NCBI GenBank assembly: GCA_023382875.1
Contig: JAHDXH010000002.1
Coordinates: 5,724-69,723 of the forward strand
DNA from: Patescibacteria group bacterium
Lineage (GTDB): Bacteria > Patescibacteriota > Microgenomatia > UBA1400 > PJMF01
Direction: 5' to 3'
DNA length: 64,000 nt
The translations under genes and the position numbers were made by a program. The notes below the pieces were generated by a model. That model saw only the letters and a list, made by a program, of their open reading frames with translations, was not told where the DNA came from and did no database searches. Within the stretch, counting starts at the first letter, position 1. Every line of letters starts with the position of its first letter. Shown in pieces: positions 1-45,386 of this stretch.

Positions 1-2176
1 TGCTTTCAAAAGTCGAGTTTTAAGAGACGGCGTTTGGCAAACTATTGCCAGTAAAAAATTGGTGGTGGGCGATGTGGTTAAGTTAAGAATCGGCGATCTT
101 GTTCCAGCTGATATTTTGATGACTGAAGTTGATGGCCTATCTGCTAATGAAAGTACTCTGACCGGTGAATCAGTACCAGTAGAAAAAAGAGTTGAAGATA
201 AAATTTTCATGGGTACATCCGTAGCTAGTGGATTGGGTATCGGCGAAGTAGTGGCCACAGGTAAATCGACTAAATTAGGCGAGTTGTCAAAAGATTTAGA
301 GAAGAAAGCTCCGCAAACCGAGTTTCAAAAACAAACAAAAAATTTTTCTAAGTTAATTTTCCAAATGACGGCAGTAATGACGATTTTTGTTTTCATTGCT
401 TCGTCGCTAAATGAAAAAAGTTTCTTTGATGCATTCTTTTTTGCTGTGGCTTTGGCTGTCGGTATGGCTCCTGAGTTATTGCCAGCTATTGTAACCATTA
501 CTTTGTCTCATGGCGCGAGAGCAATGGTGAAGAAAAAAGTGATTGTTAAAAGATTGATTGCCGTAGAAAACTTAGGCAACGTGGATACGCTTTGTTCCGA
601 TAAAACCGGCACCCTGACTAGAGGTAGTTTTGCCTTGGTTGGCTATCGTTCCTTGAAGGTGGCGGGAGATGAACAATTGTTGATGAAGTCACTTCTTTGT
701 TCTGACAATTTTATCAATCAAAGTAGCGATGCATTGGCAACACCAGTCGATGAAGCTTTATGGAAGGCGGCGGCCTCCAAAAAACATCAGGCTCGTCTTA
801 AAACTTACAAAAAATTAGACCAAAACGAATTTGATTACGACCGCCGCCGCATGAGCGTTTTGGTCACTAACCGTAAGGAAAAAGTTTTAGTTGTTAAAGG
901 TGCGCCAAGTTCAATTTTAAGTTGTTCGGTTTTGGTAAAGGATGAGAACCGCATTGTCAAACTGACAGAAAAATTAAATAAGGAAATCAAAAATTTAGTC
1001 GCCGAATATGAAAAGCATGGTGTGAGAGTGATCGCAGTTGCTGAGCGCGATTTTCATCTTGATAAAACTACCGCCGCTGATGAAAAAAACTTAACCTTCT
1101 TAGGATTATTGTTATTTGAAGATCCAGTTAAGTCATCGGCCAAAGAAGCAATTGCGCAACTAAGATCACTTGGTGTCGAAATCAAAATCATTAGTGGCGA
1201 TTCTTTGCCAGTTACCCATGCTATAGCAAATCAAGCCGGTATCAAAGTTGGAACTTCTGAGGTTATTCACGGGGATGTTTTGGCTAAATTAACTGCCAAA
1301 GAGTTTGAGCAACATGTAATTAAATACAACGTTTTTGCCAGAGTGACACCAAGTCAAAAATATCAAATTGTCATGGCTCTCAATAGAAAGAAACATGTGG
1401 TGGCCTTCTTGGGCGACGGTGTAAATGATGCGCCCGCTCTTAAAGCTGCAGATGTTGGAATTAGCGTTGATACTGGCGCTCAAATCAGTAAGGAAGCTGC
1501 CGATATTATTTTGCTCAAAAAAGATTTGAAGTTTTTGGCCGATGGAATTGTTGAAGGTCGCAAAACCTTTGGCAATATCATGAAATATATTTTCAATACC
1601 ATTTCTGCTAACAACGGCAATATGTTAACAGTGACTTTAGCTTCGGCTTTTTTGAAATTTATTCCCATGTTGCCTTCACAAATCCTGCTCAATAACTTTA
1701 TTTCCGATATCCCGCTTTTGGCAGTAGCAACAGATAGAGTTGATCCTCATTTCACCAGCAAACCCAAGCGCTGGAACATGAAAAAAATTTGGATTTTTAT
1801 GATGGTTTTTGGCTTGCTTTCGACATTCTTTGATTTATTTTTACTTTTGCCAATGATTTTCGTTTGGAAAGTTTCGCCAGAAATTTTTAGAACTGCTTGG
1901 TTTATTGAATCTTCATTGTCGGAAATCTTAATTACTTTTTCAATTCGAACCAAGTTGGTTTTCTTTAAAAGTGTGCCAAGTTGGCTGCTAATTGGTTTGA
2001 GTCTTTTCTCTTCACTTTTAATTGTTGGTTTGCCCATTCTTGGCATCGGGCAAAAGATGTTCGAGTTTGTTGATATTCCTAGACAAATTTGGCTCTGGAT
2101 TGGTTTGGGATTAGCTCTATACTTCTTATGTGCGGAGTTTTTAAAAAGAATTTTCTACCGCTATTTTGAAGATTGA
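1..2176 (+). CDS. P-type cation-transporting ATPase (MgtA / Ca2+-ATPase-like); 5' end lies outside the window
   Basis: Reading frame open from base 2, so the track start at 59 is not the true start. TGES actuator motif, DKTGTLT phosphorylation motif, GDGVNDAPALKAADVGI hinge motif and hydrophobic C-terminal helices are visible in the translation. Confidence 0.9.
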   Translation, partial: AFKSRVLRDGVWQTIASKKLVVGDVVKLRIGDLVPADILMTEVDGLSANESTLTGESVPVEKRVEDKIFMGTSVASGLGIGEVVATGKSTKLGELSKDLEKKAPQTEFQKQTKNFSKLIFQMTAVMTIFVFIASSLNEKSFFDAFFFAVALAVGMAPELLPAIVTITLSHGARAMVKKKVIVKRLIAVENLGNVDTLCSDKTGTLTRGSFALVGYRSLKVAGDEQLLMKSLLCSDNFINQSSDALATPVDEALWKAAASKKHQARLKTYKKLDQNEFDYDRRRMSVLVTNRKEKVLVVKGAPSSILSCSVLVKDENRIVKLTEKLNKEIKNLVAEYEKHGVRVIAVAERDFHLDKTTAADEKNLTFLGLLLFEDPVKSSAKEAIAQLRSLGVEIKIISGDSLPVTHAIANQAGIKVGTSEVIHGDVLAKLTAKEFEQHVIKYNVFARVTPSQKYQIVMALNRKKHVVAFLGDGVNDAPALKAADVGISVDTGAQISKEAADIILLKKDLKFLADGIVEGRKTFGNIMKYIFNTISANNGNMLTVTLASAFLKFIPMLPSQILLNNFISDIPLLAVATDRVDPHFTSKPKRWNMKKIWIFMMVFGLLSTFFDLFLLLPMIFVWKVSPEIFRTAWFIESSLSEILITFSIRTKLVFFKSVPSWLLIGLSLFSSLLIVGLPILGIGQKMFEFVDIPRQIWLWIGLGLALYFLCAEFLKRIFYRYFED

Positions 2177-2212
2177 TATACTTTCCAGATTAATTTCAGA
2201 TTAAATTGACTA

Positions 2213-2241
2213 TTGATTTATACATATTGGCTGTGTATAAT
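2213..2241 (+). promoter_or_regulatory. sigma70-like promoter (TTGATT, 17 bp spacer, TATAAT) upstream of small ORF 2297..2458
   Basis: Near-consensus -35 and -10 hexamers with 17-bp spacing read directly from the sequence; GAGGTGA Shine-Dalgarno 7 nt before the ATG. Confidence 0.4.
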
Positions 2242-2296
2242 GTCGCTGTGCTTTCAAAAGCACAAAAACGACGATTTAGTGACGTGAGGTGATAAC

Positions 2297-2458
2297 ATGT
2301 CCAGTAAGCACGCTTTGGTAGACCGCAGTTGGAATCGCTGGCTTCAGAGCCACAACGGGCAACTCTTCTTAGCCAAGATGGCGAAGAAGGAAGACAAGTC
2401 GGCAACGACCCCAACCACGAATACCGCCAACGCCACATCGCCGGTTAAGAAGAGTTAG
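2297..2458 (+). CDS. small hypothetical protein (53 aa, basic, Thr-rich C-terminus)
   Basis: ATG with strong SD, own promoter and a downstream hairpin plus T-run. Below the 60-aa cutoff of the ORF track. Local G+C is higher than the flanks. Confidence 0.4.
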   Translation: MSSKHALVDRSWNRWLQSHNGQLFLAKMAKKEDKSATTPTTNTANATSPVKKS

Positions 2459-2493
2459 GTCAACTTATTCTTCTTACAAGCACCCAAAAGTGT

Positions 2494-2520
2494 CAGCCTT
2501 CAACCGCTGGCGCTTTTTTT
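2494..2520 (+). terminator. weak hairpin (CAGC..GCTG) followed by T7 run after the small ORF
   Basis: Short stem but a 7-T run; lies 36 nt after the stop of 2297..2458. Confidence 0.3.
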
Positions 2521-2545
2521 AGCCAAAAATCCAAATTTTAGATAA

Positions 2546-2581
2546 AAAATAAACCCCTCCAGTGACGAAGGGGCTTTTTGT
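2546..2581. terminator. bidirectional rho-independent terminator (CCCCT-loop-AGGGG, A-run before, T-run after)
   Basis: Hairpin flanked by an A-tract upstream and TTTTT downstream, placed between convergent small genes 2297..2458 (+) and 2601..2819 (-). Confidence 0.6.
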
Positions 2582-2600
2582 ATTTGGCTGCGGGCGGTGG

Positions 2601-2819
2601 TTAATCGCCACCGGGCCCGTTCCAATACTCATCCGAGTAAAGGGTAAGGCTTCCCACTAAAAAGAAGATGATGGTGATGAGGATAATGGGCCAGTCCCAG
2701 ACACCAATGAAGAACATAAAGCTCTCAACGATGACTGCAACTACCCCGATTAACGCACAATAAACCGCCCATCTCACATTGTGTGGTTGGCCACTCAGCC
2801 AGTTGGTCAGGTTTTGCAT
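2601..2819 (-). CDS. small membrane protein (72 aa, two predicted hydrophobic helices)
   Basis: ORF in track; hydrophobic stretches VAVIVESFMFFIGVW and IILITIIFFLVGSL; convergent with the preceding small ORF; GC-elevated. Confidence 0.5.
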   Translation of the reverse strand: MQNLTNWLSGQPHNVRWAVYCALIGVVAVIVESFMFFIGVWDWPIILITIIFFLVGSLTLYSDEYWNGPGGD

Positions 2820-2914
2820 GGCAAATCTCCTTTGCTCTAAACCATTTCCAAGTGGGTATCCTAGGTCTAATTACTTAATTTGTCAATGTTTTCTTGACTA
2901 AGAGTCCTATAGTA

Positions 2915-2943
2915 TTGACAAATCATATAAAAAATGTTATAAT
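2915..2943 (+). promoter_or_regulatory. consensus sigma70 promoter TTGACA, 17 bp spacer, TGtTATAAT (extended -10)
   Basis: Perfect -35 and -10 hexamers with TG extension. It lies inside the annotated 2894..3178 ORF, so the real start is downstream. Confidence 0.55.
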
Positions 2944-2995
2944 GATGTTGGTTGTTCGAACCAAAAGACAGATGACTAAGGAGATTTTTAACATC

Positions 2996-3178
2996 ATGAA
3001 GAAATTCCGGTATTGGTCGCGCACCAACAATCGCTTCATCCGTATCTACGCTGTGGTTGGGGAATTCGAGGTCGTTGTTTTTTACGAAGACCTGCAACCC
3101 TTCCATAAGGGCTATGAGATTGAAGACTGGAAAAATGCCATCCAGAACGGCGAGATAATCGCTGACTGGGACGAATAA
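2996..3178 (+). CDS. small hypothetical protein (about 60 aa; alternative start at 2972)
   Basis: AAGGAG SD at 2978 sits downstream of a strong promoter that is inside the longer track ORF. Followed by a clean terminator. Confidence 0.5.
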   Translation: MKKFRYWSRTNNRFIRIYAVVGEFEVVVFYEDLQPFHKGYEIEDWKNAIQNGEIIADWDE

Positions 3179-3192
3179 CCAACAAACAGAAG

Positions 3193-3220
3193 GCAGGGGA
3201 CTCAAAGACCCTGCTTTTTT
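3193..3220 (+). terminator. rho-independent terminator (GCAGGG-loop-CCCTGC plus T6)
   Basis: 6-bp GC stem followed by TTTTTT immediately after the stop at 3178. Confidence 0.7.
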
Positions 3221-3284
3221 GCGTCCATTTTTTGTTTTTTTCTGACTCGTTGAATTTTATCTGGCTAACTGATAGTTTTGAGGT

Positions 3285-4391
3285 ATGAATCCAAAGTTGA
3301 TGAACATCGGTTTTTTTAAAAGTATTGTTAAAAAACTAACTTGGCTATTTGGCTTGATTTTTATCTTTGGTGGCTTCTCTGAATTTTCTTCCAATAATTT
3401 TATTTTTGGATTAAGTGGTATTTTATTGGGCTTGAGTTTTTTGCCGATTTTTTGGTCATTTTTAAATAAAAAATTTAACTTATCGCCATCTATTTTCAAA
3501 AAAGCTGGAGTGGTGTTTGTCTTAATGTCGCTGTTCGGATACTTGGCACCACCAACAGAAAAAGTGCCTCAGACTTTGGTGCAAAATTCATTAGCGCCTA
3601 CACAAGAAGCAACAACTTCGGCTGAAAAACAGGTTGGAGTCGTTGTGGAGGAAATTGGTCAAGTGACTAGGGTGGTTGATGGTGATACTTTGGAAGTTTT
3701 GGTTGGTGGTCAGGCGATGAAAATTAGAGTGATTGGTATTAATACGCCAGAAACAGTTGATCCCAGAAAATCTGTAGAATGTTTTGGCCAGCAAGCTTCT
3801 AGTGAAGCGAAAAGATTATTGGAAAATCAGCAAGTTCGTTTAGAAATTGACCCAACTCAAGGTGATAAAGATAAATACGATCGCTATCTTAGATTTGTTT
3901 GGCTCGAAAATGGCAATTCTGATTATGGAAAACAGATGATTGCTAACGGTTTTGCTTTTGAATACACCTATCAAACACCTTATAAATATCAGGCAGAATA
4001 CAAATTAGCTCAACAAACAGCAGAAGCTGAGAAAAAAGGTTTGTGGGCTGATGATGCTTGTGTAATCACAGCCACTCCAACGCCTTCGCCGGCGGCATTG
4101 GTGGTGCCAACACCATCTCCTAAGCCAACATCAAAACCAACTGTTGCTCCAAAAATTAGTCCGTCACCAAAGCCAACTACAAGCGTTAAGTCAAATAACT
4201 CTGGTAGCACTAGCTCTGGAGGTTCGGCTGGAAGAAGTTGCACTGGCCCTGATTTGGATTGCAAAGACTTTGCTACACACGCTGAGGCACAAGCATTCTT
4301 TAATGGCTGTGGTTTTACGGCGACCAACGATCCAATGAAGTTGGATGGTACTGGCGTTGACGACGGAATTGCCTGCGAGGACAGGCCTTAG
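3285..4391 (+). CDS. membrane-anchored secreted thermonuclease (SNase/micrococcal nuclease fold) with Pro/Thr-rich linker and C-terminal Excalibur calcium-binding domain
   Basis: N-terminal hydrophobic helices; VVDGDTLEV...IRVIGINTPET SNase motif; PTPSP/KPT low-complexity linker; C-terminal DCKDF...DGTGVDDGIACE Excalibur-type DxDxDGxxCE motif. Confidence 0.85.
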   Translation: MNPKLMNIGFFKSIVKKLTWLFGLIFIFGGFSEFSSNNFIFGLSGILLGLSFLPIFWSFLNKKFNLSPSIFKKAGVVFVLMSLFGYLAPPTEKVPQTLVQNSLAPTQEATTSAEKQVGVVVEEIGQVTRVVDGDTLEVLVGGQAMKIRVIGINTPETVDPRKSVECFGQQASSEAKRLLENQQVRLEIDPTQGDKDKYDRYLRFVWLENGNSDYGKQMIANGFAFEYTYQTPYKYQAEYKLAQQTAEAEKKGLWADDACVITATPTPSPAALVVPTPSPKPTSKPTVAPKISPSPKPTTSVKSNNSGSTSSGGSAGRSCTGPDLDCKDFATHAEAQAFFNGCGFTATNDPMKLDGTGVDDGIACEDRP

Positions 4392-4393
4392 AG

Positions 4394-5581
4394 TTATTTC
4401 AAACTTTGGATAACTTTTTTGGTTAAGGTTTCCACTAAGTTTGGATAAAATGGTGAAACGATCACTTCTTCTGCAGTTGGGTTTGGTGTTAGTGAGGCCA
4501 AAGCATCAACCAAGGCAATTTTTACTTCAGGCGTAATTTGTTTCAAGTTTAATTTATGTGCGATATTGAAAATTGCCGGGAAAGCCAAAACGTTATTAAT
4601 TTGGTTTTTGAAATCACTTCTGCCAGTGGCAATTACATAGGCGCCAGCTTTTTTGGCCTCATCGGGCATAATCTCTGGATCTGGATTTGCCATAGCAAAA
4701 ATAATTGATTTTTTGGCCAGTTTTTTAACTAATTCTGGAGTAATACTGCCTGGTCCAGAAACACCCACCAAAACATCAAAGCCTCCCAGTGTTTCGAGTG
4801 GCGATCCTTGAATAAGGTCGTTGTTGCTGATGCCAGCAACAGCTTGCTTGTAAACATTCATTCCTGATCGACCTCTGTATAAAGCACCTTGGCGGTCAAA
4901 CACCACTACGTCTTTGACGCGTGGTAAGGCGTTAATAATTGAACAGTTGTCAAAATAACAAGTAGCTCCCAGAAGCATTTTAGCGATAGCTAGGCCAGCT
5001 GCGCCTGAGCCAATGATACCGACTCTTAGTGATTCGTAGGGTTTATCAACAACTTTGGCAGCATTACGAAGGGCGGCCGCAACGACGATGGCTGTGCCGT
5101 GTTGATCATCGTGGAAAACAGGAATGCCAATGTCTTGCAACGCCTCTTCAACTTCAAAGCAGTTGGGAGCAGTAATATCTTCAAGATTAATGGCAGAAAA
5201 AGTGGGGGCAACTTGCTCGACAAACCGGATTAATTCTCGTGGCTCTTTGGTATTTACGACTAAAGGAAATGAATCTAAACCTGAAAATCTTTTGATCAAT
5301 AAAGCTTTGCCCTCCATGACTGGTAAGGCAGCTTCTGGACCAATATTACCAAGACCAAGCACAGCCGAACCATCTGAGATGACGGCCACAGTGCGACCAC
5401 TTAAGGTAAGCTTTTTAGCAAGGTTTTTGTCTTTCGCCACTGCTCTGGAAACGGCACCAACGCCGGGGGTGTAAGCGAGGGATAAGTCGGTGGCGTTATT
5501 AATTTCTACTTTGGAAGTAATTTCCAATTTCCCTTGATGTTTGGCGTGTAAATCGATGGCTTGTTCTGAGATGTCTGGCAT
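4394..5581 (-). CDS. NAD(P)-dependent malic enzyme (short, YtsJ/MaeB N-domain type)
   Basis: DLSLAYTPGV, VAVISDGSAVLGLGNIGPEAALPVMEGKALL and the GIIGSGAAG Rossmann motif are typical of bacterial malic enzymes. Confidence 0.9.
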   Translation of the reverse strand: MPDISEQAIDLHAKHQGKLEITSKVEINNATDLSLAYTPGVGAVSRAVAKDKNLAKKLTLSGRTVAVISDGSAVLGLGNIGPEAALPVMEGKALLIKRFSGLDSFPLVVNTKEPRELIRFVEQVAPTFSAINLEDITAPNCFEVEEALQDIGIPVFHDDQHGTAIVVAAALRNAAKVVDKPYESLRVGIIGSGAAGLAIAKMLLGATCYFDNCSIINALPRVKDVVVFDRQGALYRGRSGMNVYKQAVAGISNNDLIQGSPLETLGGFDVLVGVSGPGSITPELVKKLAKKSIIFAMANPDPEIMPDEAKKAGAYVIATGRSDFKNQINNVLAFPAIFNIAHKLNLKQITPEVKIALVDALASLTPNPTAEEVIVSPFYPNLVETLTKKVIQSLK

Positions 5582-33664: not shown

Positions 33665-33991
33665 ATGGTGAATACAGATAAGAACTCATCTTACAACATC
33701 AGAGTTAGACTCAAGGCTTACGACCACAGAGTTATTGATGAGGCATCTAAAAAAATTCTGGAAACCGTGGTATCCACTGGTGCCAACGTTGTTGGTCCTG
33801 TGCCTTTGCCAACTCATCGCAAGGAGTTCACAGTTTTAACTTCACCACACACTGATAAAAACGCTCAAGAGCATTATCAGATTAAAACACACAAGAGGTT
33901 GATTGATATTATCAACCCAACCAGTAAGACTATTGATTCTTTGATGCACCTTGACCTCCCAGCGGGTGTAGACATTCAAATCAAAATGTAA
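33665..33991 (+). CDS. rpsJ: 30S ribosomal protein S10
   Basis: [14 protein letters not shown]...GPVPLPT. Confidence 0.9.
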
Positions 33992-34101
33992 TTTATACCT
34001 AAAAATTTTTTTAGGATACAGTCTGAAAACAAACGAAAAAACAACACTAAGAATCAAGTTGATGAAACTAAGATTCTCTGAAGTAGAGAACAATAACTTA
34101 T

Positions 34102-34845
34102 ATGTTAAACCAAGTATTTGCTACCAAACTCAAAATGAGCCAGGGTTGGACAACCACAGGCAAACGCGTGGCAATCACACGCTGCCGTGTTGAAAGTAAT
34201 CTTGTTGTAGCAGAAGTTAAGTCCCCAGAAACTGATTCTAAGAAGATTTTTGAAATTGGATATGGCACCAAAAAAGCCAAAAACATGTCTAAGCCGCTAA
34301 GAACTAAACTAGAGAAGAGCGGCTTTTCTAATGGTATTTTAGGTTTGCAAGGTGTTCATCATGAAGGTGAAGACGTGAAAGTTGGTGATTCCATCAATTT
34401 GGAGCAAGTGCTCGAAGTTGGTGACATCGTCAAGGTTCAAGGAACATCAAAAGGCCGAGGTTTCGGTGGTGTTATGAAACGCCACGGATTCAAAGGTGTT
34501 GGTGGTCGCACTCATGGTCAATCAGACAGACAAAGAGCACCAGGTTCTATTGGTTCTGGTACTACTCCAGGTCGTGTTCTCAAAGGTTTGAGAATGGCTG
34601 GTCACTATGGTGTCGAAACAATCAGTATTTCTAACTTGACTGTTTTACACATTGATAGTGTCAATCAAGAAGTTTGGTTGTCTGGTCCAGTTCCAGGCTC
34701 ATTCAACTCCATCGTTCGTATTGAAAAGATGGGTAAAAAGAAAAATATTGTTTTAGACAAAAAAGCTTCAGGAATCAAAGAAGCTCCAGTAGCTGTAGAA
34801 AAAGCAGAAGCTAGTGAAGTCGCTAGTGAAGCTCAAACAAACTAA
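34102..34845 (+). CDS. rplC: 50S ribosomal protein L3 (with C-terminal acidic/Ala-rich tail)
   Basis: Sequence identity to L3 family; operon position. Confidence 0.9.
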   Translation: MLNQVFATKLKMSQGWTTTGKRVAITRCRVESNLVVAEVKSPETDSKKIFEIGYGTKKAKNMSKPLRTKLEKSGFSNGILGLQGVHHEGEDVKVGDSINLEQVLEVGDIVKVQGTSKGRGFGGVMKRHGFKGVGGRTHGQSDRQRAPGSIGSGTTPGRVLKGLRMAGHYGVETISISNLTVLHIDSVNQEVWLSGPVPGSFNSIVRIEKMGKKKNIVLDKKASGIKEAPVAVEKAEASEVASEAQTN

Positions 34846-35552
34846 TGAAATTAACTAAAGTTAACTTAACCGGCGCCAATAGTTCCTTAACAGCAAGTGA
34901 TGCTGTCTTTGGCTCAGTAGTCAACGAAACCTTATTGGCTCAAGCTGTTAGGGTTTATCTTTCTAACAAACGCCAAGGTACTAGTTACACTAAAACCAGA
35001 AGTGAAGTTAATCGAACCAAGAAAAAATGGTACAAACAAAAAGGTACAGGTAACGCTCGCCACGGTGCGCGTTCAGCTAACATCTTTGTTGGCGGTGGTA
35101 CCGCTCATGGACCAAAAGGTAACACTGATTGGACCTTAAAATTGACTGCAGTTTTAAAGAAAAAGGCCATGATCTCTGCTTTATCAGCTCAAGCTAGTAA
35201 AGTGATCGTGTCTGATGACATCATGAACTTGTCCGGCAAAACCAAAGAGGCAGCTGCTTTAATTACTAAAGTTGCTCCAGAAGCTGGTAAAGTTTTAGTT
35301 GTCATTAACAAGAGTGAAGAAAATGTCTTAAAGAGTTTGAGAAACTTAGAAACTGTCTTAGTTGTCTCTGCTTCCAGAGTTAACACTTTGGAAATCGTTC
35401 TCGCTGACGCAGTTATTATGACTTCTGAAGCAGTCAAAGCTCTTGAAGCTAGATTATTGGGTGAAGTCAAAGAGGTTAAAGAAGAAAAGTCAGCTGTTAA
35501 AGCAACCGCTGTCAAAACAACCAAAAAAGTAGCCGCAAAGAAAGCTGCTTAA
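34845..35552 (+). CDS. rplD: 50S ribosomal protein L4 (with Lys/Ala-rich C-terminal extension)
   Basis: L4 signature and position after rplC. Confidence 0.9.
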   Translation: MKLTKVNLTGANSSLTASDAVFGSVVNETLLAQAVRVYLSNKRQGTSYTKTRSEVNRTKKKWYKQKGTGNARHGARSANIFVGGGTAHGPKGNTDWTLKLTAVLKKKAMISALSAQASKVIVSDDIMNLSGKTKEAAALITKVAPEAGKVLVVINKSEENVLKSLRNLETVLVVSASRVNTLEIVLADAVIMTSEAVKALEARLLGEVKEVKEEKSAVKATAVKTTKKVAAKKAA

Positions 35553-35557
35553 TTAAT

Positions 35558-35863
35558 ATGAACGCCTACATTATTAGAAAACCAATTATTACTGAAAGAT
35601 CTTTGAGTCTCGCTCAAATGGAAAACAAATATGTTTTCGAAGTGAGTCGTTTGGCTAATAAAGATCAAATCAAAGTAGCAGTTGAAGAGTTCTTTGGCGT
35701 TGAAGTTAAAGCTGTTAACACTATTAGAAGTAATCGTTCCACCAAGAAAACTGGTAGAAAACGACAAACTGTAGTGGTTCCAGCAACTAAAAAAGCAGTT
35801 GTTGAACTCAAAAAAGGTCACAAAATTGACATGTTTGATTTCAACCCTAACGAAGAGAAATAA
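35558..35863 (+). CDS. rplW: 50S ribosomal protein L23
   Basis: L23 family sequence. Confidence 0.9.
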   Translation: MNAYIIRKPIITERSLSLAQMENKYVFEVSRLANKDQIKVAVEEFFGVEVKAVNTIRSNRSTKKTGRKRQTVVVPATKKAVVELKKGHKIDMFDFNPNEEK

Positions 35864-35879
35864 ATAGATATAACTAACA

Positions 35880-36713
35880 ATGTTAAAAATCAGTAAAGCA
35901 ACCACACCAGGACGAAGACACTTAGTCAGTGTTGATCGTTCCGAACTTTACAAAGGTGAACCTGAAAAGTCACTCTTAGTTCCTGGTCACAAAAAACGAC
36001 AAGGCCGTGGTTTTAAAGGTCACGTCACTGTTCGTCATCGAGGTGGTGGTGTCAAAAAGAGACTTCGCATTATTGATTGGAAGAGAGATAAAAGAGATAT
36101 TGTTGGTCTCGTTGAAAGATTGGAATACGATCCAATGCGTTCAGCCAATATCGCTTTAGTTATCTACGCTGATGGTGAAAAAAGATATATGCTCGCACCA
36201 AACAACTTGAAAGCTGGCGACAGAGTCGTAGCTGGTCAACAAGTTGAACCAAGTGTTGGTAATGCTTTGCCCCTTAAAAACGTTCCTGTAGGTACCCCAA
36301 TTCACAATATTGAGTTGAGAATTGGTAAGGGTGGACAATTAGTTAGAGGCGCAGGTGTCTCAGCTATGGTCCAATCCAAAGAAGGTGCTTTCGTGGCTGT
36401 TTTAATGCCATCTAAGGAAATCAGATTGATAAATAGCGAATGTTTCGCTACAATCGGCCAGGTTGGAAACCTAGATCACAAAAATCAACAACTTGGTAAA
36501 GCAGGTCGCAAACGCATGATGGGTATCAGACCAACTGTTCGTGGTACTGCTCAACACCCAGATTCACATCCACACGGTGGTGGTGAAGGTAGAAGTGGTG
36601 TCGGTCTTAAATTCTCCAAAACTCCATGGGGTAGACCAGCAATGGGTAAGAAAACTCGTAAGAAGAATCATGTCAATAATAAATTCATTATTAGAGACAG
36701 AAGAAGTAAATAA
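35880..36713 (+). CDS. rplB: 50S ribosomal protein L2
   Basis: L2 family sequence ([16 protein letters not shown]...). Confidence 0.95.
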
Positions 36714-36715
36714 AT

Positions 36716-37000
36716 ATGTCAAGATCAAGTAAAAAAGGACCATACATTGACCCAAAATTGCTTAACAAAGTGCTTAAGCAAAAAGAGTCAGGCAAGAAAG
36801 CTCCAATCAAAACCTGGAGTAGAGGTTGTACTGTTGGTCCAGATTTCGTTGGTCATACATTCATGGTTCACAATGGCAGAATCTTTTCTGAAGTTTTTGT
36901 CAATGAAGCCATGGTTGGTCACAAATTAGGTGAGTTCTCTCCAACCAGAACCTTTAGAGGTCACGGTAAAATTGTGAAGAGAACATTGACTAAGACCTAA
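36716..37000 (+). CDS. rpsS: 30S ribosomal protein S19
   Basis: S19 sequence (KKGPYID...[10 protein letters not shown]). Confidence 0.95.
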
Positions 37001-37007
37001 GGTAAAA

Positions 37008-37478
37008 ATGCAATTTAAAGTAACACAAAAAAATACCAGACAAAGTCCAAGAAAAGTTAGATTAGTGGCCAACACCATTAAGAAACTTCCTTTGGAACAA
37101 GCAATCAAGCAATTGGCTGTTATTGAGAGAAAATCCACTGTGGTTTTACTCAAGACTATCATGCAAGCTATTGCTAACGCTAAGAACAACCACGGTGTCG
37201 ACGCTGATAAGTTGGCTATCAAAGAAATTTTGGTCAATGTTGGCCCAAGTTACAAGAGATACAACGCAGTTAGTCGTGGTCGAGGTCACAGTATTCTAAA
37301 GAGAACCTGTCATATCAGTGTCACTTTAGAAGAAAAGAAAGCTGAAGTTAAACCAGCAGCTAAGGCTGAAGTTAAGACTGAAGCCGTCAAAACAGTAGAG
37401 AGTAAAAAACCAGCTGCTAAAAAAGCAACTGCTGTTAAAACAGCAAAAAAAGCAGTCGCAAAAAAAGCTGAAAAATAA
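37008..37478 (+). CDS. rplV: 50S ribosomal protein L22 (Lys/Ala-rich C-terminal extension)
   Basis: L22 family plus AKAEVKTEAVK... tail. Confidence 0.9.
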   Translation: MQFKVTQKNTRQSPRKVRLVANTIKKLPLEQAIKQLAVIERKSTVVLLKTIMQAIANAKNNHGVDADKLAIKEILVNVGPSYKRYNAVSRGRGHSILKRTCHISVTLEEKKAEVKPAAKAEVKTEAVKTVESKKPAAKKATAVKTAKKAVAKKAEK

Positions 37479-37481
37479 AAT

Positions 37482-38138
37482 ATGGGACAAAAAGTAAATC
37501 CAACCGGCTTTAGAATTGGTAACACCTTCACTTGGAAATCAAGATGGTTTGCCAAGGCAGCAGACTACCAAAACGTAGTTTTGGAAGACAACGCTATCCG
37601 TACTTTCCTTAATGAAAAGTTGGCTAGTGCTGGCGTGGTTGCTATTGAACTCGAGAGATCTTTAACTTCAATTAAAGTGATCTTAGTTGTCTCAAGACCA
37701 GGTGTTGTCATTGGTAAAGGTGGCGAAAACTTGAAAAAAGTTCAAGCTGACCTCAACCGTTTGATCAACATTAAAAGAGAAAAAGGTCAAAAACTTAAGA
37801 TCAATCTTAAGGTTGATGAATTTAAGACACCAGATATTAGTGCAAAATTAGTTGCTCAAAGAATCGCAGAGCAATTGGAAAAAAGATTCCCACACCGCCG
37901 CGCTGTAATGCAAGCTATGGAAAAGGCTATGGCAGCTGGCGCAAAAGGTGTTAAAATTGCTCTTTCTGGAAGAATTGGTGGCGCCGAAATCGGACGCACC
38001 GAAAAGTACTTTGAAGGCAAAGTACCTACTCAAACTTTAAGAGCTAACATTGATTACCATCATGGTCCAGCTTTGACCAAGTCTGGTTTTGTTGGTATTA
38101 AAGTTTGGATTTATAAAGGCAATGTAGACGAGAAATAA
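37482..38138 (+). CDS. rpsC: 30S ribosomal protein S3
   Basis: MGQKVNPTGFRIG start typical of S3. Confidence 0.95.
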   Translation: MGQKVNPTGFRIGNTFTWKSRWFAKAADYQNVVLEDNAIRTFLNEKLASAGVVAIELERSLTSIKVILVVSRPGVVIGKGGENLKKVQADLNRLINIKREKGQKLKINLKVDEFKTPDISAKLVAQRIAEQLEKRFPHRRAVMQAMEKAMAAGAKGVKIALSGRIGGAEIGRTEKYFEGKVPTQTLRANIDYHHGPALTKSGFVGIKVWIYKGNVDEK

Positions 38139-38140
38139 GT

Positions 38141-38548
38141 ATGTTACAACCTAGAAAATCAAAATACCGAAAAGAGTTTAGAGGTTCCATGAAGGGCATT
38201 GCTACTCGTGGTAACACCGTTGCCTTTGGTGATTATGGTTTACAGGCAACTACTTGTGGTTGGGTCTCTGCTCGTGAATTAGAAGCTGCTCGTAAGAAAA
38301 TTACCTTCTCTACCAAAAGAGCTGGTAAATTCTGGTTGAGAGTTTTCCCTCACAAGCCAGTTACTAGTAAACCAGTTGGTGTCAAAATGGGTGCCGGTAA
38401 GGGTGAAATCGACCGCTACGTCTGTGTTGTCAAACCAGGAATGATTATTTACGAAATCGGTGGTGTTACCAAAGAAGTGGCACACTCAGCTTTGAAAAAA
38501 GCTGGTCACAAACTTTCAGTTCGTACTACCGTCGTGGAAAAAATCTAA
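38141..38548 (+). CDS. rplP: 50S ribosomal protein L16
   Basis: L16 family sequence. Confidence 0.95.
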   Translation: MLQPRKSKYRKEFRGSMKGIATRGNTVAFGDYGLQATTCGWVSARELEAARKKITFSTKRAGKFWLRVFPHKPVTSKPVGVKMGAGKGEIDRYVCVVKPGMIIYEIGGVTKEVAHSALKKAGHKLSVRTTVVEKI

Positions 38549-38754
38549 TGAAAAGAAACGATATTAAAGCACTAACCGAAAAAACCGTAGCTCAACTCGA
38601 AAAGCAACTCGGTCAATTACAAAATGAATTGGCTAAAGTTAGACTCGAAAAGAGAGCTATGAAATTAGCTAACATCAGTTTACCTCGTGTTTTGACTGAC
38701 GACATTGCTCGTGTCAAAACTGAGTTAAGAAGAAGAGAATTATTAAACAAATAA
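38548..38754 (+). CDS. rpmC: 50S ribosomal protein L29
   Basis: L29 family sequence. Confidence 0.9.
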   Translation: MKRNDIKALTEKTVAQLEKQLGQLQNELAKVRLEKRAMKLANISLPRVLTDDIARVKTELRRRELLNK

Positions 38755-38755
38755 T

Positions 38756-38989
38756 ATGAAAACTTTACAAGGAACCATCACATCTTTAAAGAATGCTAAG
38801 ACTGCGATTGTGACGGTAAGTAGTCGTAAACTTCATCCTTTGTATAAGAAGTACATGAAGAGTACCAAGAAATATGCTTGTCATTATGAAAATATGACCT
38901 TAGAGCTTGGACAAGAAGTGCAAATTAACGAAAGTAAACCAATTAGCAAAACAAAGAGATTTGTTGTCGCTAACGTAGTAGCAAAATAA
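38756..38989 (+). CDS. rpsQ: 30S ribosomal protein S17
   Basis: S17 family sequence. Confidence 0.9.
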   Translation: MKTLQGTITSLKNAKTAIVTVSSRKLHPLYKKYMKSTKKYACHYENMTLELGQEVQINESKPISKTKRFVVANVVAK

Positions 38990-38999
38990 ATAACCGACC

Positions 39000-39374
39000 A
39001 TGATTCAATTAAGATCAATCCTACACGTCGCTGATAACTCAGGTGCAAAACGCCTCAGAGTAATTCAAGTTCATGGTGGTTCCAAGAGAAAATTTGGTTC
39101 CATTGGTGATATTGTTGCTGCTTCAGTCATTGCTTCTGACACTAAAGGTTCTTTGAAAAAAGGCGAAAAAGTCAAAGCTGTGATTGTCAGAACACACAAA
39201 GAATTCAGAAGAGATAACGGCGAATACATCAGATTTGATGATAACGCTGCCGTCATTATTGAAGGTCGAGACAAAGTTGATCCAATCGGTACTCGTGTCT
39301 TTGGACCAGTAGCTCGGGAGATTAAAAACAAGGGATTCCACAAAATCGCTTCATTAGCTCCAGAAGTTTTATAA
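39000..39374 (+). CDS. rplN: 50S ribosomal protein L14
   Basis: [14 protein letters not shown]. Confidence 0.95.
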
Positions 39375-39378
39375 AACT

Positions 39379-39720
39379 ATGAAATTAAAAATCGGCGATC
39401 AAGTACTAGTAACAATCGGAAAAGACAAAGGCAGAAAAGGTGAAGTCATTAAGACTTTCCCTAAATCTGACCGCGTTGCTGTAAGAGGCATCAACCTTTT
39501 CACCAAACACATCAAGCCTTACGCAGGTAGAGCTGGTGAGAAAAAAGTTAGTGAAAGACCAATGTCTACCGCTAAAGTTGCGATTTTGAACGAAAAAGGT
39601 CAAGCTGATCGCGTTGGCTACAAAGTCAATGAAGATGGTTCTAAAGTGAGAATTTTTAAGAAAACCGGTAAGGCCATTGATTCCGCTAAAAAGGAAAAGG
39701 CTACTGCCAGTAAGAAATAA
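39379..39720 (+). CDS. rplX: 50S ribosomal protein L24
   Basis: KOW motif MKLKIGDQVLVTIGKDKGRKGEV. Confidence 0.9.
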   Translation: MKLKIGDQVLVTIGKDKGRKGEVIKTFPKSDRVAVRGINLFTKHIKPYAGRAGEKKVSERPMSTAKVAILNEKGQADRVGYKVNEDGSKVRIFKKTGKAIDSAKKEKATASKK

Positions 39721-39725
39721 TAACA

Positions 39726-40292
39726 ATGAATAGATTAAAACAGAGATACCAGACAGAGGTCGTACCACAACTCACTAAAGAGTTGGGTATTAAAAATGCT
39801 TTCTCAGTTCCAAAACTAGAAAAAGTAGTCTTGAACATGGGTGTGGTTGATATGCCACAAAATCCTCGTGCTCGTATGGCTATTATTGAAAACGTAGTTG
39901 AGCAATTCCAAGTCATCACCGGTCAGCACCCACAAATCACCAAAGCTAAAAAATCAATCGCTGGTTTCAAGCTTCGTGAGGGTGAACCACTCGGCGTTAT
40001 GGTAACATTACGCGGTGAGAGAATGTGGGAATTTGTCGATAAGCTTATTTCAACAGCATTACCACGTGTTAGAGACTTTACAGGTATTTCTCGTACCGCT
40101 TTCGACGGTCATGGTAATTACAATTTGGGCATTTCTGAACAAATTGTTTTCCCAGAAATCGTTTTTGATTCAATCGAAAGTGTCCGTGGGTTACAAATTA
40201 CTTTTGTGACTAACACAAACTCAAATGAGCAATCCTTCGCTTTACTCAAAGCTTTAGGTATGCCATTTGCTAAAGAAGAGGTTAAAGAATAA
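39726..40292 (+). CDS. rplE: 50S ribosomal protein L5
   Basis: L5 family sequence. Confidence 0.95.
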
Positions 40293-40297
40293 ATCAT

Positions 40298-40531
40298 ATG
40301 GCAGGAACAAAATCAAAAGTCCTAAAAGCTCAAAGATTGTTAGCCAAGCGCGAGGCATATGCTAAGTCTGGTGTTAAAAAACCAAACCGATTCTCGACTA
40401 GAGGTGAGAATAGGTGTAAAATGACTGGTCGTGCTGGAGGCTACATGCGCTACTTTGGTTTGAGTCGTATTGCCTTTAGAGAGTTAGCAATGAAGGGTGA
40501 ATTGCCCGGCGTGACGAAAGCAAGCAAATAA
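40298..40531 (+). CDS. rpsN: 30S ribosomal protein S14 (77 aa, single Cys; not the Cys4 zinc type)
   Basis: S14 family sequence and operon position between rplE and rpsH. Confidence 0.85.
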
Positions 40532-40532
40532 T

Positions 40533-40922
40533 ATGACAGATCCTATTGCAGACATGATCATCCGAGTAAAGAATGCTTTCTTAGCTAGTAGAGCTACTGT
40601 TAGTATTCCTCACTCAAAAATGAAAGAAGCCTTGGCTAAAATTCTCGAAGCCGAAGGTTATGTGGAAAGTTTTGAAGTCAAACCAACTGCTCCACAAAAA
40701 ACTATTGAAATTAAACTTAAATATATTGGTAAGATCCCTGCGATCACTGAAGTGAGAAGACTCTCTAAACCAGGACGCAGAATGTACGCTACTGTTGGAG
40801 AAATCCCACGATCCTTGGGTGGTTACGGCGTTACAATCGTTAGTACAAGTAAGGGAGTTATTACCGACAAAGATGCTCGTAAAATGAACATCGGCGGCGA
40901 AGTACTCTGTCAAATTTGGTAA
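40533..40922 (+). CDS. rpsH: 30S ribosomal protein S8
   Basis: S8 family sequence. Confidence 0.95.
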   Translation: MTDPIADMIIRVKNAFLASRATVSIPHSKMKEALAKILEAEGYVESFEVKPTAPQKTIEIKLKYIGKIPAITEVRRLSKPGRRMYATVGEIPRSLGGYGVTIVSTSKGVITDKDARKMNIGGEVLCQIW

Positions 40923-41464
40923 ATAATATGTCAAGAATCGGAAGAAAACCAGTTGCTCTTACTACCGGCGTCAAAGCTGAAGTAGTTGGCAACGAAGTAG
41001 TAGTCAGAGGCGCCAAAGGCGAACTCAAAGTTACTATTCCAGCTGGCATCGAAGTTAAGATTGAAGACAACAGTGTTGTTGTTTCCGCTCTTAACGAAGA
41101 AAATCAAACCAGAGCTTTCCACGGTTTAGTGAGAAGTTTGGTTGAAAATGCTAACGAAGGTGTTTCTACTGGTTACAAAAAAACATTGAAAATGATCGGT
41201 ACCGGTTATAGAGTTGCTCTCAAGGGTGCAGGTTTAGAATTAGCTGTTGGTTTTTCTCACAAAGTTGAAGTCAAGCCAAGAGTTGGTGTCAAATTCACCA
41301 TTGAAGGACAAGATACTATCCATGTTGAAGGTATTGATAAGCAAGTCGTTGGTCAACAAGCTGCTGAGATTAGAGCGATTAAACCACCAGAGCCTTACTT
41401 GGGCAAAGGTATTCGCTATGAAAATGAAGAAGTGATTAGAAAACAAGGTAAGACTGCCGCCTAA
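40916..41464 (+). CDS. rplF: 50S ribosomal protein L6
   Basis: L6 family sequence. Confidence 0.95.
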   Translation: MVNNMSRIGRKPVALTTGVKAEVVGNEVVVRGAKGELKVTIPAGIEVKIEDNSVVVSALNEENQTRAFHGLVRSLVENANEGVSTGYKKTLKMIGTGYRVALKGAGLELAVGFSHKVEVKPRVGVKFTIEGQDTIHVEGIDKQVVGQQAAEIRAIKPPEPYLGKGIRYENEEVIRKQGKTAA

Positions 41465-41465
41465 A

Positions 41466-41834
41466 ATGCAAAAAATTAAACAAAACTTAACCCTAGCTGA
41501 AAAAAGAGCTCGCAGAGTCAGAAGTAAAATTTCTGGTACTGCCGAGCGTCCAAGATTAACTGTTTTCAGATCAAACAAATACACTTACTTACAAGTGATT
41601 GATGATCAAGCTGGAAAAACATTGGCTGCTGCCAGTGACGTTTCAGTCAAAAAAGCAGGTGTTAAATTGGACGGCAAAAAGATGGAAAATGCTGTCGTAG
41701 TTGCTCAGGAATTGTTCAAGCAACTTAAAACTAAAAAGATCTCAGCAATCAGATTTGATCGCGGTTCTTACCGCTATCACGGCAGACTCAAGGCAGTCGC
41801 CGATGCATTGAGAGAAGCAGGTATTGAAGTCTAA
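41466..41834 (+). CDS. rplR: 50S ribosomal protein L18
   Basis: L18 family sequence. Confidence 0.9.
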   Translation: MQKIKQNLTLAEKRARRVRSKISGTAERPRLTVFRSNKYTYLQVIDDQAGKTLAAASDVSVKKAGVKLDGKKMENAVVVAQELFKQLKTKKISAIRFDRGSYRYHGRLKAVADALREAGIEV

Positions 41835-41839
41835 AATAT

Positions 41840-42532
41840 ATGGCATACAACAACGAAGATCAAAAAAACCAGAAACAAAAGAGAGAACCAAAGGAATTTG
41901 AAGAAAAAGTTATTCAAATTTCTAGAGTTTCCAAAAAAACCAAAGGTGGTAACAAATCCGGCTTTTCAGTTTTGATGGTTGTTGGTGACAAAAAAGGTCA
42001 GGTTGGCGTTGGTTTAGGTAAGGCAAGTGACGTTATTGGCGCGATCAAAAAGGGTATTAAAAAAGCCCGCAAAAAAATGATCACTATTCCACTTGATGGA
42101 ACAACAATTCCTTTCTCAGTTGAAGTTAAAAAAGGTGCTGGTGTAGTTATGCTTAAACCAGCTCCAAAAGGTTCAGGTGTTATCGCTGGTGGCCCAATTA
42201 GAGCTGTGGTCGAAGCTGCTGGTATTAGAGATATCTCTAGTAAAATTATGGGCAGTGAAAACAAAGCTTCTAGTGTTTACGCTACTTTTGAAGCCTTAAC
42301 TCAAATCACTAAATTAGTTAAAATCAAAAATATCAAATTAAGATCCATTGCTGAAATTGAAGCAGAAGAAAAGAAAAAAGCTGAAGAAATTCAAGCTAAA
42401 GACAAAAAAGCTGCTCAGGAAGCTAAAGCCAAAGAGGCTAGTGAAGCTAAGCCAGCTGCTAAAAAAGTTGTCAAAAAGCCAGTTGCAAAGAAACCAGCTG
42501 TTGCCAAAAAACCAGCTGCTAAGAAGGAATAA
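41840..42532 (+). CDS. rpsE: 30S ribosomal protein S5 (with about 70-aa Lys/Ala/Glu-rich C-terminal extension); L30 gene absent downstream
   Basis: S5 core plus KKKAEEIQAKDKKAAQEAKAK...AKKPA tail; the next gene is rplO directly. Confidence 0.95.
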   Translation: MAYNNEDQKNQKQKREPKEFEEKVIQISRVSKKTKGGNKSGFSVLMVVGDKKGQVGVGLGKASDVIGAIKKGIKKARKKMITIPLDGTTIPFSVEVKKGAGVVMLKPAPKGSGVIAGGPIRAVVEAAGIRDISSKIMGSENKASSVYATFEALTQITKLVKIKNIKLRSIAEIEAEEKKKAEEIQAKDKKAAQEAKAKEASEAKPAAKKVVKKPVAKKPAVAKKPAAKKE

Positions 42533-42534
42533 CC

Positions 42535-42972
42535 ATGTCATTACTTAACCAATTAACCAGTGTTACCAGTAGAGCCAAGAAACGCGTTGGTCGTGGTTAT
42601 GGCAGTGGTAAAGGTGGACACAATTCAGGTAAAGGTACCAAGGGTCAAAACGCCCGACGTGGTGGCGGTGTGGCTCAATGGTTTGAAGGTGGTCAATTAC
42701 CAATCATCAAGAGAATGCCAATGATGCGTGGTAAATCTAGACTCGAAATTGTCAATCCAACCGCTCAATTATCTCTCACAGAAATCGAAAACTTAAAAAC
42801 TGAAGTTATCACATTAGAGTCTCTCAAATTAGAGAAGGCTATTGATGGTAGATTCAAAAAAGCAAAGATTGTTGGAAACGGTAGTATCTCGAGAAAAGTA
42901 ACAGTTGAAGGTGTCGGTGTAACCGCTGGCGCTAAGGCTGCTATAGAAAAAGCAGGTGGCAAAGTGGTATAA
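42535..42972 (+). CDS. rplO: 50S ribosomal protein L15
   Basis: L15 family sequence. Confidence 0.95.
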   Translation: MSLLNQLTSVTSRAKKRVGRGYGSGKGGHNSGKGTKGQNARRGGGVAQWFEGGQLPIIKRMPMMRGKSRLEIVNPTAQLSLTEIENLKTEVITLESLKLEKAIDGRFKKAKIVGNGSISRKVTVEGVGVTAGAKAAIEKAGGKVV

Positions 42973-42981
42973 ACTTACTTT

Positions 42982-44265: not shown

Positions 44266-44286
44266 TAAATATTAAAAGAAAAAACT

Positions 44287-44829: not shown

Positions 44830-44860
44830 ATTTAGTCAAATAATGGTATAATATAGGCCT

Positions 44861-45190
44861 ATGGGAAAAGTTCAAGCTCATAAAAGAGCAGCAAAAGCTA
44901 AAAGACAAGTTGATTTAACCTCTGAAAAATCTCAAGCGGTTGACCGTTTTGAGATCGAAGGCGAGGTTTTGCAATGCTTGCCTAATACCATGTTTAGAAT
45001 TGAAGTTACAAAGAGTGAAGTTGAGCCTATTATTGGCAAAACTTTATTAGGTACTTTGGCAGGAAAAATGCGATTGTATCGAATCAGGGTTATGCCTGGT
45101 GATTTAGTCAAAGGTTATGTCAGTAAATATGACCTCGGAAAGTGTAAAATCACCTATAGATCAACCAAAACTGATTCGCAGTCAATTTAA
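44861..45190 (+). CDS. infA: translation initiation factor IF-1 with about 25-aa N-terminal extension
   Basis: S1-like core (IEGEVLQCLPNTMFRIEV ... GKMR) preceded by a basic extension. Confidence 0.85.
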   Translation: MGKVQAHKRAAKAKRQVDLTSEKSQAVDRFEIEGEVLQCLPNTMFRIEVTKSEVEPIIGKTLLGTLAGKMRLYRIRVMPGDLVKGYVSKYDLGKCKITYRSTKTDSQSI

Positions 45191-45380: not shown

Positions 45381-45386
45381 AAGAAT

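Follow-up and report, generated by a model that had tools for sequence, protein, structure and literature searches.

A patch of about 1 kb was analysed in a 64,000-nucleotide stretch of DNA (hereafter the window) from a Patescibacteria group bacterium (assembly GCA_023382875.1, contig JAHDXH010000002.1, positions 5,724 to 69,723). The patch (window positions 2190-3230) lies between the genes for a magnesium pump and a nuclease and holds three small open reading frames (ORFs), here called ORF1, ORF2 and ORF3, of 53, 72 and 60 amino acids (aa). It is neither junk nor one operon. It was read, with somewhat more confidence than doubt, as three genuine monocistronic small-protein genes that form a stable gene set of one narrow Patescibacteria lineage. 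Each gene is predicted to have a separate promoter of the sigma-70 type, a ribosome-binding site and an intrinsic terminator, and the three would be strongly and independently expressed. Their products would be small proteins with an accessory or binding role rather than toxins.

What was found is a set of orphan genes that is well documented, not a new system. For about half of Patescibacteria genes no function is known, and the small proteins among them have received the least attention. Here, three small-protein candidates are backed by evolutionary comparison; one (ORF1) is unannotated, and another (ORF3) is probably annotated with a wrong start and was replaced by an antisense frame in a second assembly. 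Two features are distinctive: a gene-specific G/C-rich codon usage that is absent from ribosomal-protein genes, and the exchange of ORF3 as a promoter-to-terminator cassette between lineages that differ by about 20% in the flanks. If ORF2 proved to modulate the magnesium pump, or ORF3 to be a specificity determinant, the patch would bear on ion handling or conflict in reduced symbionts.

Syntenic loci and conservation of the reading frames

Looking up the exact sequence of ORF2 and of close variants of it gave twelve syntenic loci (L001-L012), one of which, L002, is another assembly of the window's own genome. The lineage set consisted of the window and seven other loci with 76-92% nucleotide identity to it (n = 8). 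Gene order in all was ATPase, ORF1, ORF2, ORF3, in some loci an ORF of 286 aa, and the nuclease. All three small frames were open at the same position in 8/8 lineages. An earlier sequence-only reading had placed three tiny ORFs (53, 72 and about 60 aa) between the ATPase and the nuclease, with frame conservation and substitution pattern proposed as checks. The ORFs were found as described, their frames were kept in all lineages compared, and the substitutions fit coding selection in ORF2, ORF3 and the N-terminal half of ORF1.

The ratio of non-synonymous to synonymous divergence (dN/dS) was determined for the window against four relatives; on this scale the C-terminus of the ATPase gave 0.02-0.06. 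ORF2 reached 0.06-0.13 (other frames about 0.7 or higher), with 14, 7 and 40 variable columns at the first, second and third codon position, and its relatives were 76-96% identical in protein. ORF3 gave 0.05-0.11 (other two frames above 1.5) and 20, 17 and 44 variable columns. By their substitution patterns, both ORF2 and ORF3 are certainly coding. In ORF1, a conserved Trp-rich N-terminal part of 30 residues is followed by a variable, Thr/Pro/Ala-rich low-complexity tail ending in KKS. Because of its low complexity, this tail is suggested to be disordered. For the first 30 codons, dN/dS was 0.12-0.20, as against 1.1-2.1 in the other frames (each in 3/4 comparisons), and 9, 9 and 16 columns were variable by codon position. 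Orthologues of ORF1 are 52-56 aa long, their indels are all multiples of three (3 or 6 nt, in the tail), and the C-terminal KKS, the ATG and the Shine-Dalgarno site are conserved. ORF1 is very probably coding, since the N-terminal dN/dS is low and every indel stays in frame.

The proteins of the locus are identical to NCBI entries MCL4208181-184. ORF2 and ORF3 are annotated as hypothetical proteins (MCL4208181.1 and MCL4208182.1), and the accessions run consecutively through ORF2, ORF3 and the nuclease. The exact 53-aa sequence of ORF1 was absent from the protein collection, and ORF1 appears to have been missed by annotation. The earlier expectation that such genes escape annotation appears to hold for ORF1 and does not hold for the other two. 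ORF3 starts with the ATG at 2996, not 2998. Longer forms (94 aa from a TTG; 78 and 87 aa in annotations, the latter in MCL4208182.1) are upstream extensions that are not conserved, and the annotated start is probably wrong. A 112-aa antisense ORF (2867-3205, minus strand), called in the L002 assembly, was rejected: selection acts on the ORF3 frame, and in relatives the gene on the ORF3 strand is called instead.

Transcription and translation signals

Promoters were scored by matches out of 12 to TTGACA-17-TATAAT; promoters and terminators are consensus-based predictions. Positions are listed in Table 1. From the sequence, each ORF had been proposed to have a near-consensus sigma-70 promoter or a strong Shine-Dalgarno site, and a hairpin terminator; here a sigma-70-like promoter, a Shine-Dalgarno site (GAGGTGA for ORF1, AAGGAG for ORF2 and for ORF3) and a hairpin with a T-run were assigned to each. 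The ORF1 promoter region is nearly invariant in seven relatives, and the ORF2 promoter is conserved in relatives as well. The ORF3 promoter is the sole site in the 64 kb with at most one mismatch to the consensus and stands back to back with that of ORF2. The 5' untranslated region (UTR) of ORF1 is conserved in relatives, and its hairpin is kept in L003 and L011.

Table 1. Predicted features of the patch and its surroundings (window positions).
Feature	Position	Strand	Description
MgtA-type P-type ATPase ORF	ends 2176		left neighbour of the patch
ORF1 promoter	2213..2241	+	TTGATT-17-nt spacer-TATAAT; 10/12 matches
ORF1 5' UTR	2248..2296	+	hairpin GTGCTTT/AAAGCAC and Shine-Dalgarno GAGGTGA (folding)
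ORF1	2297-2458	+	53 aa, basic
ORF1 intrinsic terminator	2486..2520	+	hairpin ~2486-2518, -16 kcal/mol, then T7
Bidirectional hairpin	2551..2576	both	A-run, stem, T-run; 11 pairs (minus strand)
ORF2	2601-2819	-	72 aa, membrane protein, two transmembrane helices
ORF2 promoter	2858..2886	-	TTGACA-17-nt spacer-TAGGAT; 10/12 matches
ORF3 promoter	2915..2943	+	TTGACA-17-nt spacer-TGnTATAAT; 12/12 matches and extended -10 TG
ORF3 cassette	2944..3180	+	5' UTR and coding sequence; unit of exchange between lineages
ORF3	2996-3178	+	60 aa, acidic, beta-rich, soluble, cytoplasmic (predicted)
ORF3 intrinsic terminator	3188..3225	+	hairpin ~3188-3222, -15.8 kcal/mol, then T6
Nuclease ORF	starts 3285		membrane-anchored, SNase family; right neighbour of the patch
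Ribosomal-protein cluster	33665-49254	+	S10, L3, L4, L23, L2, S19, L22, S3, L16 onward (from translations)
Ribosomal cluster, later genes			SecY, adenylate kinase, IF-1, S13, S11, S4, RpoA, L17, L13, S9 (from translations)

ORF1 and ORF2 had been described as convergent on a shared bidirectional terminator. They are convergent, but ORF1 does not rely on the shared hairpin alone, having a terminator of its own ahead of it. The stem of that terminator is kept in relatives, where a T.G pair has become T-A through a G-to-A change; L011 has a different loop. The bidirectional hairpin (-15.4 kcal/mol on the minus strand, -8.9 kcal/mol on the plus strand) is the predicted terminator of ORF2 and may back up that of ORF1. 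The ORF3 terminator is nearly invariant, L011 included. A shared operator was considered for TCCTATAGTATTGAC, which lies beside the ORF3 -35 box, and was rejected, as no further copy above chance was present in the window. The element resembles CCYATARYTATTGAC, which is one base longer and lies upstream of both ORF3 paralogues of a metagenome contig (L017, see below).

Base composition and codon usage

The content of guanine plus cytosine (G+C) was 0.49 at 2301-2600, compared with 0.34-0.35 in the flanks, as had been noticed from the sequence, and with a window mean of 0.397. This segment ranks at the 96th percentile among 300-nt windows; of stretches similar in size, only an 865-aa ORF is richer. 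The raised G+C is wholly a third-codon-position effect. Third-position G+C was 0.72 in ORF1, 0.62 in ORF2 and 0.64 in ORF3, as against 0.328 +/- 0.031 (range 0.24-0.41) in 50 long ORFs, ribosomal-protein genes among them. The excess corresponds to 9-13 standard deviations (SD) of the long ORFs and, by a hand estimate that includes binomial sampling error for 53-72 codons, still to about 5-6 SD. Codons ending in C and in G were both raised, including AAG and GAG.

Across orthologues of the three ORFs, third-position G+C was 0.54-0.75. Most neighbour genes in the relatives had 0.24-0.39, among them the accessory ORFs of 286, 100 and 140 aa; exceptions were accessory ORFs of 178 and 258 aa (0.44-0.48). 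The L017 paralogues of ORF3 had 0.47-0.49, compared with 0.18-0.34 for most of their neighbours. The excess persists at a synonymous divergence of 0.3-0.8. A recent foreign origin of the three genes is unlikely, because the excess is present in every relative and in the distant L017 paralogues. The genes had previously been called compositionally foreign; in the sense of a recent acquisition this was not supported, as the patch is syntenic in all relatives and its G/C-rich third positions persist.

The ribosomal-protein cluster (Table 1) served as control for highly expressed genes. The usual codon bias of such genes was rejected in its simple form, since the ribosomal-protein genes have a third-position G+C of 0.24-0.43 and the small ORFs are enriched in the G-ending AAG and GAG as well. 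Messenger RNA structure was likewise rejected as cause of the G/C-rich codons: for the coding parts, folding z values were -1.6 to -2.6, where controls averaged -0.9 (-2.6 to +1.0). Whole transcripts of the small genes gave -3.4 to -4.3, a signal that comes mostly from the terminators. Slow loss of an old state, weak selection at synonymous sites and recombination-associated G/C bias are possible explanations of the G/C-rich state. In the proposed mechanism, the G/C-rich codons would be upheld, or slow to decay, through synonymous-site constraint or recombination-associated G/C bias.

Several results weigh against the main reading. Over its whole length, ORF1 had a dN/dS of about 0.5 and was not distinct from the other frames, its codon-position pattern was flat (20, 19 and 23 variable columns), and its comparison between the window and L012 yielded 0 synonymous and 12 non-synonymous changes. 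Six promoter-like sites were found in the region, not above shuffled sequences (3.3 +/- 1.9). The codon bias of the small ORFs is missing from the ribosomal-protein genes. A crude polarised count of third-position changes gave 70 from strong to weak and 36 from weak to strong pairing. Equilibrium of this flux was rejected (p = 0.001) and neutral decay at the rates of the neighbour was not (p = 0.06), so that an old G/C-rich origin with slow loss is possible.

Searches for related families

No match to the three ORFs was found in Pfam, NCBIfam, PHROGs and PADLOC (best E at least 0.095), including families of defence systems, phages and toxin-antitoxin pairs. Sequence-profile searches of the PDB returned chance matches only. 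Among these, a match of ORF1 to a designed helical repeat protein (E = 5e-4) was rejected, as no stretch passed alone. Rfam gave no match at E <= 1 in 1500-4000 and three transfer RNAs (tRNAs) only in the whole window. Scans of phages and plasmids by tblastn and of IMG/VR viral contigs yielded no relatives. That none of the three resembles a recognisable family, as first judged by eye, was therefore borne out by all of these collections. In a word-indexed search of 5.8 billion proteins, one related cluster was retrieved for ORF1, four for ORF2 (76-100% identity) and four for ORF3. The 64-kb window holds no paralogues of the three ORFs elsewhere.

ORF3 family and exchange of the ORF3 cassette

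An exhaustive profile search of 1.84 billion representatives (50% identity) recovered seven proteins of 58-62 aa and one tandem fusion of 116 aa (P0026), with E from 9e-35 to 6e-5. ORF3 has the pattern M-x-K-[FY]-R-Y-[WF]-S-x-T ... Y ... W ... G-W-[ED] over its full length, with M1, Y6, S8, T10, Y18, V26 and W58 invariant in the family. On these matches, ORF3 is assigned to a rare, unnamed family of proteins of about 60 aa. The contexts recovered for the family were Patescibacteria-like metagenome contigs only. One of these, L017 (1.05 Mb, G+C 0.36), carries two tandem paralogues of 58 and 61 aa (4927-5521), as also seen in L018. Each L017 paralogue has its own TTGAC(T/A)-17-TATAAT promoter and hairpin terminator, and they adjoin genes for CsoR-like, thioredoxin and thioredoxin-reductase proteins (identified from translations). 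As ORF1, ORF2, the ATPase and the nuclease are missing near these copies, the three genes are not an obligate module.

The N-terminal half of ORF3 is basic and the C-terminal half acidic. An AlphaFold model (predicted local distance difference test, pLDDT, 81) showed four strands, a helix and a short strand. Foldseek gave nothing significant; the best PDB matches were Tudor- or PH-like (E at least 0.9), and the best in BFVD were uncharacterised phage proteins (E at least 0.047). ORF3 resembles cold-shock proteins (CspA family) as a beta-protein of similar length (about 60-70 aa) that has paralogues and a very strong promoter, but is net acidic, has no Pfam cold-shock domain (CSD) match and no ribonucleoprotein (RNP) motif, and obtained no significant structural match.

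Exchange of ORF3 was traced in per-segment identity matrices and sliding windows of the eight lineages. Four allele classes were distinguished (window; L012/L001/L010/L003; L007/L009; L011), which are 61-75% identical to one another in nucleotides and incongruent with the flanks (90-100% identical). L010 and L007 were 99-100% identical across ORF1, ORF2 and the terminator and 64% in ORF3; the window and L001 were 94-97% identical in the flanks and 72% in ORF3. Conversely, L003 and L001 shared about 80% in the ATPase, 72% downstream and 97% in ORF3, and L003 seems to have imported a tract from about 2626 to about 3130. Breakpoints were located at about 2940 (transcription start) and about 3164 (stop codon and terminator), with the conserved ORF3 promoter as left and the conserved ORF3 terminator as right boundary. 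These comparisons indicate that ORF3 and its 5' UTR are replaced between lineages by homologous recombination, for which, given the breakpoints, the conserved promoter and terminator act as anchors. Identical combinations of allele and backbone were seen again in independent assemblies, and this speaks against chimeric assembly.

Synonymous divergence between the ORF3 alleles is saturated (0.65-0.84). No sign of positive selection was found in ORF3, its variable centre included (pN/pS 0.2-0.27 overall and 0.27-0.6 in the centre). Judged from this divergence and the exchange pattern, the alleles are old, under purifying selection and mobile between lineages. Most plausibly, ORF3 would be a binding partner of high abundance, and its variants would be exchangeable from strain to strain.

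Possible roles of ORF3

In five relatives (L001, 3671-4531, minus strand; L007, L008, L009 and L011), an ORF of 286-287 aa lies between the ORF3 terminator and the nuclease. It matches Fic/DOC weakly (E = 0.004; Pfam score 18.4, cut-off 24), and its Fic motif, HPFEAVNQSLA, is degenerate. The window (at about 3285), L012 and L003 lack this ORF. The nuclease of the window and of L012 begins where relatives have the start codon and ribosome-binding site of the Fic-like ORF, and has a different N-terminus (MNPKLMNIGFF...). A deletion that fused the starts of the two genes is therefore suggested for these lineages.

An immunity- or antitoxin-like ORF3, binding and inhibiting a polymorphic partner such as the Fic-like protein, the nuclease or an incoming toxin, is unlikely. 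Such a role would explain the allelic cassettes, the tandem paralogues, the acidity and the strong constitutive expression. Four old allele classes are exchanged among lineages, the family includes the tandem pair of L017 and the fused tandem P0026, the C-terminal half is acidic, and ORF3 lies directly upstream of the Fic-like ORF in five relatives and of the nuclease in the window. Against it stand the missing positive selection and the conserved terminator between ORF3 and the downstream gene. ORF3 is also kept in three lineages without the Fic-like gene, its alleles do not co-vary with the presence of that gene, and next to the L017 paralogues there is no Fic gene and no nuclease.

Two known groups were compared in this context. 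ORF3 resembles class I Fic antitoxins (VbhA, FicA) in its size of about 60 aa and in directly preceding a Fic-like ORF in five of the related lineages. As a member of that class it was rejected: the motif (S/T)xxxE(G/N) occurs in no ORF3 allele, the protein is predicted to be beta-rich and not helical, it is retained where the Fic-like gene is lacking, and a conserved terminator stands between the two genes. Membership would also require co-transcription with a Fic toxin bearing HxFx(D/E)GNGRxxR; the neighbour departs from this motif and scores below the Pfam threshold. With the immunity proteins of polymorphic toxin systems, ORF3 has in common small size, acidity, tandem copies and the swapping of divergent alleles among strains. 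Unlike them, it lacks a toxin gene next to it, a family match and signs of positive selection, and each copy has its own promoter and terminator.

A broader proposal, held with low confidence, is that the patch is a recombination hotspot. The very strongly expressed ORF3, with ancient interchangeable alleles moving among species-level lineages of an episymbiotic bacterium, would then be a determinant of specificity or immunity type (for example against a host or competitor effector). The G/C-rich codons seen in the three genes would arise as a side effect of G/C-biased repair at this hotspot, or else from selection for extreme expression. In that case, small 'cassette' genes of this kind would form a new class in Patescibacteria.

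ORF2 and the magnesium pump

ORF2 orthologues share as invariant elements QPHNVRW, E32 in helix 1, a WDWP turn and the acidic YSDEYWNGPGGD tail. In an AlphaFold model (pLDDT 72), helices span residues 2-10 (short, N-terminal), 13-38 and 43-66, and ORF2 is accordingly modelled as a membrane helical hairpin. It most plausibly acts inside the membrane. A profile search of the genome collection with ORF2 gave no further copies, and its carriers are close relatives only; an ATPase query against the same collection returned only unrelated P-type ATPases with 25-30% identity.

P-type ATPases can be tuned by small proteins that bind them within the membrane (MgtS, MgtR and KdpF; in eukaryotes, sarcolipin and phospholamban), and small membrane regulators of such pumps are a known theme. 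By analogy, ORF2, possibly together with ORF1, might be an accessory or regulatory subunit of the adjacent MgtA-type ATPase, although this is decidedly improbable. The neighbour scored 646 bits on TIGR01524 (magnesium-translocating P-type ATPase; cut-off 610.75). ORF2 is a small, conserved integral membrane protein with an invariant acidic residue in helix 1, and its gene adjoins that of the ATPase in all relatives. However, this adjacency is seen among close relatives only, where synteny is trivial, and no distant ORF2 homologue was found in the collections searched. ORF2 is encoded on the opposite strand under its own promoter and has no sequence similarity to any known regulator. It is also larger, with 72 aa and two helices as against about 30 aa and one helix in MgtS, MgtR and KdpF.

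A type I toxin is typically a peptide of 30-50 aa with a single helix. With Hok, TisB, Fst and Ibs, ORF2 shares small size, hydrophobicity, a strong promoter and a convergent neighbour transcript. It differs from them in having two helices with long conserved soluble ends, no PADLOC or Pfam match, strong purifying selection and stable synteny; terminators part the ORF1 and ORF2 transcripts, and no overlapping antisense RNA is evident. ORF2 was therefore rejected as a type I toxin in the sense of an antisense-controlled single-helix peptide below 60 aa. The convergent ORF1 transcript is predicted to end at its own terminator and at the bidirectional hairpin, short of ORF2.

Foreign origin and untranslated alternatives

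It is very unlikely that the patch is a horizontally acquired toxin islet in which ORF2 is a toxin or membrane-active peptide and ORF1 and ORF3 are its immunity or antitoxin partners. The distinct composition, the small hydrophobic ORF2 convergent with ORF1, the evidence for recombination and the variable neighbourhood, in which the Fic-like ORF and an ORF of 100 aa come and go, would fit such an islet. However, the patch is syntenic in all eight lineages, and its third-position excess persists at the synonymous divergence given above. No flanking direct repeats, integrase, mobility genes or tRNA were found beside it, and the family, phage, plasmid and viral-contig searches were empty. The dN/dS of ORF2 of about 0.1 and its two helices in 72 aa do not suit a single-helix type I toxin, and the three separate transcription units contain no co-transcribed pair. 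A toxin or immunity role of the three genes is unsupported.

Complementary segments were observed near ORF1 at 2361-2374 / 2443-2456 and at 2446-2458 / 2464-2476. At the ORF1 stop codon, TAAGAAGAG pairs either with CTCTTCTTA (codons 22-26) or with TTCTTCTTA just downstream, and the downstream pairing of TAAGAAGAG and TTCTTCTTA is kept in L011 despite a 6-nt deletion in the loop. An alternative RNA structure at the 3' end of ORF1 is possible from these pairings.

That ORF1 is untranslated, the transcript (2248-2520) being a small regulatory RNA or the frame a matter of chance in G/C-rich DNA, has little probability: the whole-ORF dN/dS, the flat codon-position pattern, the folding of the 273-nt transcript (z = -3.4 against shuffles), the complementary segments and the single related protein cluster would fit, but the open frame in 8/8 lineages with conserved ATG and Shine-Dalgarno site, the in-frame indels, the low N-terminal dN/dS and the empty Rfam search speak for translation, and the coding part alone (z = -1.9) folds within the range of control gene pieces, the score of the whole transcript being mostly that of the terminator.

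Neighbouring genes and other observations

The neighbourhood of the patch varies in gene content. Relatives carry a conserved ORF of 100 aa (L003, 3122-3424; L007, 2261-2563; L011, 738-1040) between the malic-enzyme and nuclease genes. In the window these two genes abut tail to tail at 4391-4394 and leave no room for it. Upstream of the malic-enzyme gene, ORFs of 140, 178, 208 and 258 aa vary by lineage.

The strongest compositional outlier in the window is the 865-aa ORF (11775-14372, minus strand; likely true start ATG at 14264). Its G+C is 0.52 and its third-position G+C 0.60, compared with 0.33 in other genes, with a preference for C-ending codons like that of the small ORFs. No match was obtained in PDB sequences, PHROGs or NCBIfam, and it is not ribosomal RNA. 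In Pfam, two sub-threshold matches to Major Vault Protein (MVP) repeats were the only ones (Vault_3, E = 0.047; Vault, E = 0.052), and a vault-like nature is only a lead. Bacterial MVP-like proteins are described from Cyanobacteria, Myxococcales and Cytophagales, with the Candidate Phyla Radiation (CPR) unmentioned there (bioRxiv 10.1101/872010). The 865-aa ORF adjoins a tRNA gene (11550-11621), and a promoter with an extended -10 element (TGaTATAAT) precedes its likely start by about 130 nt.

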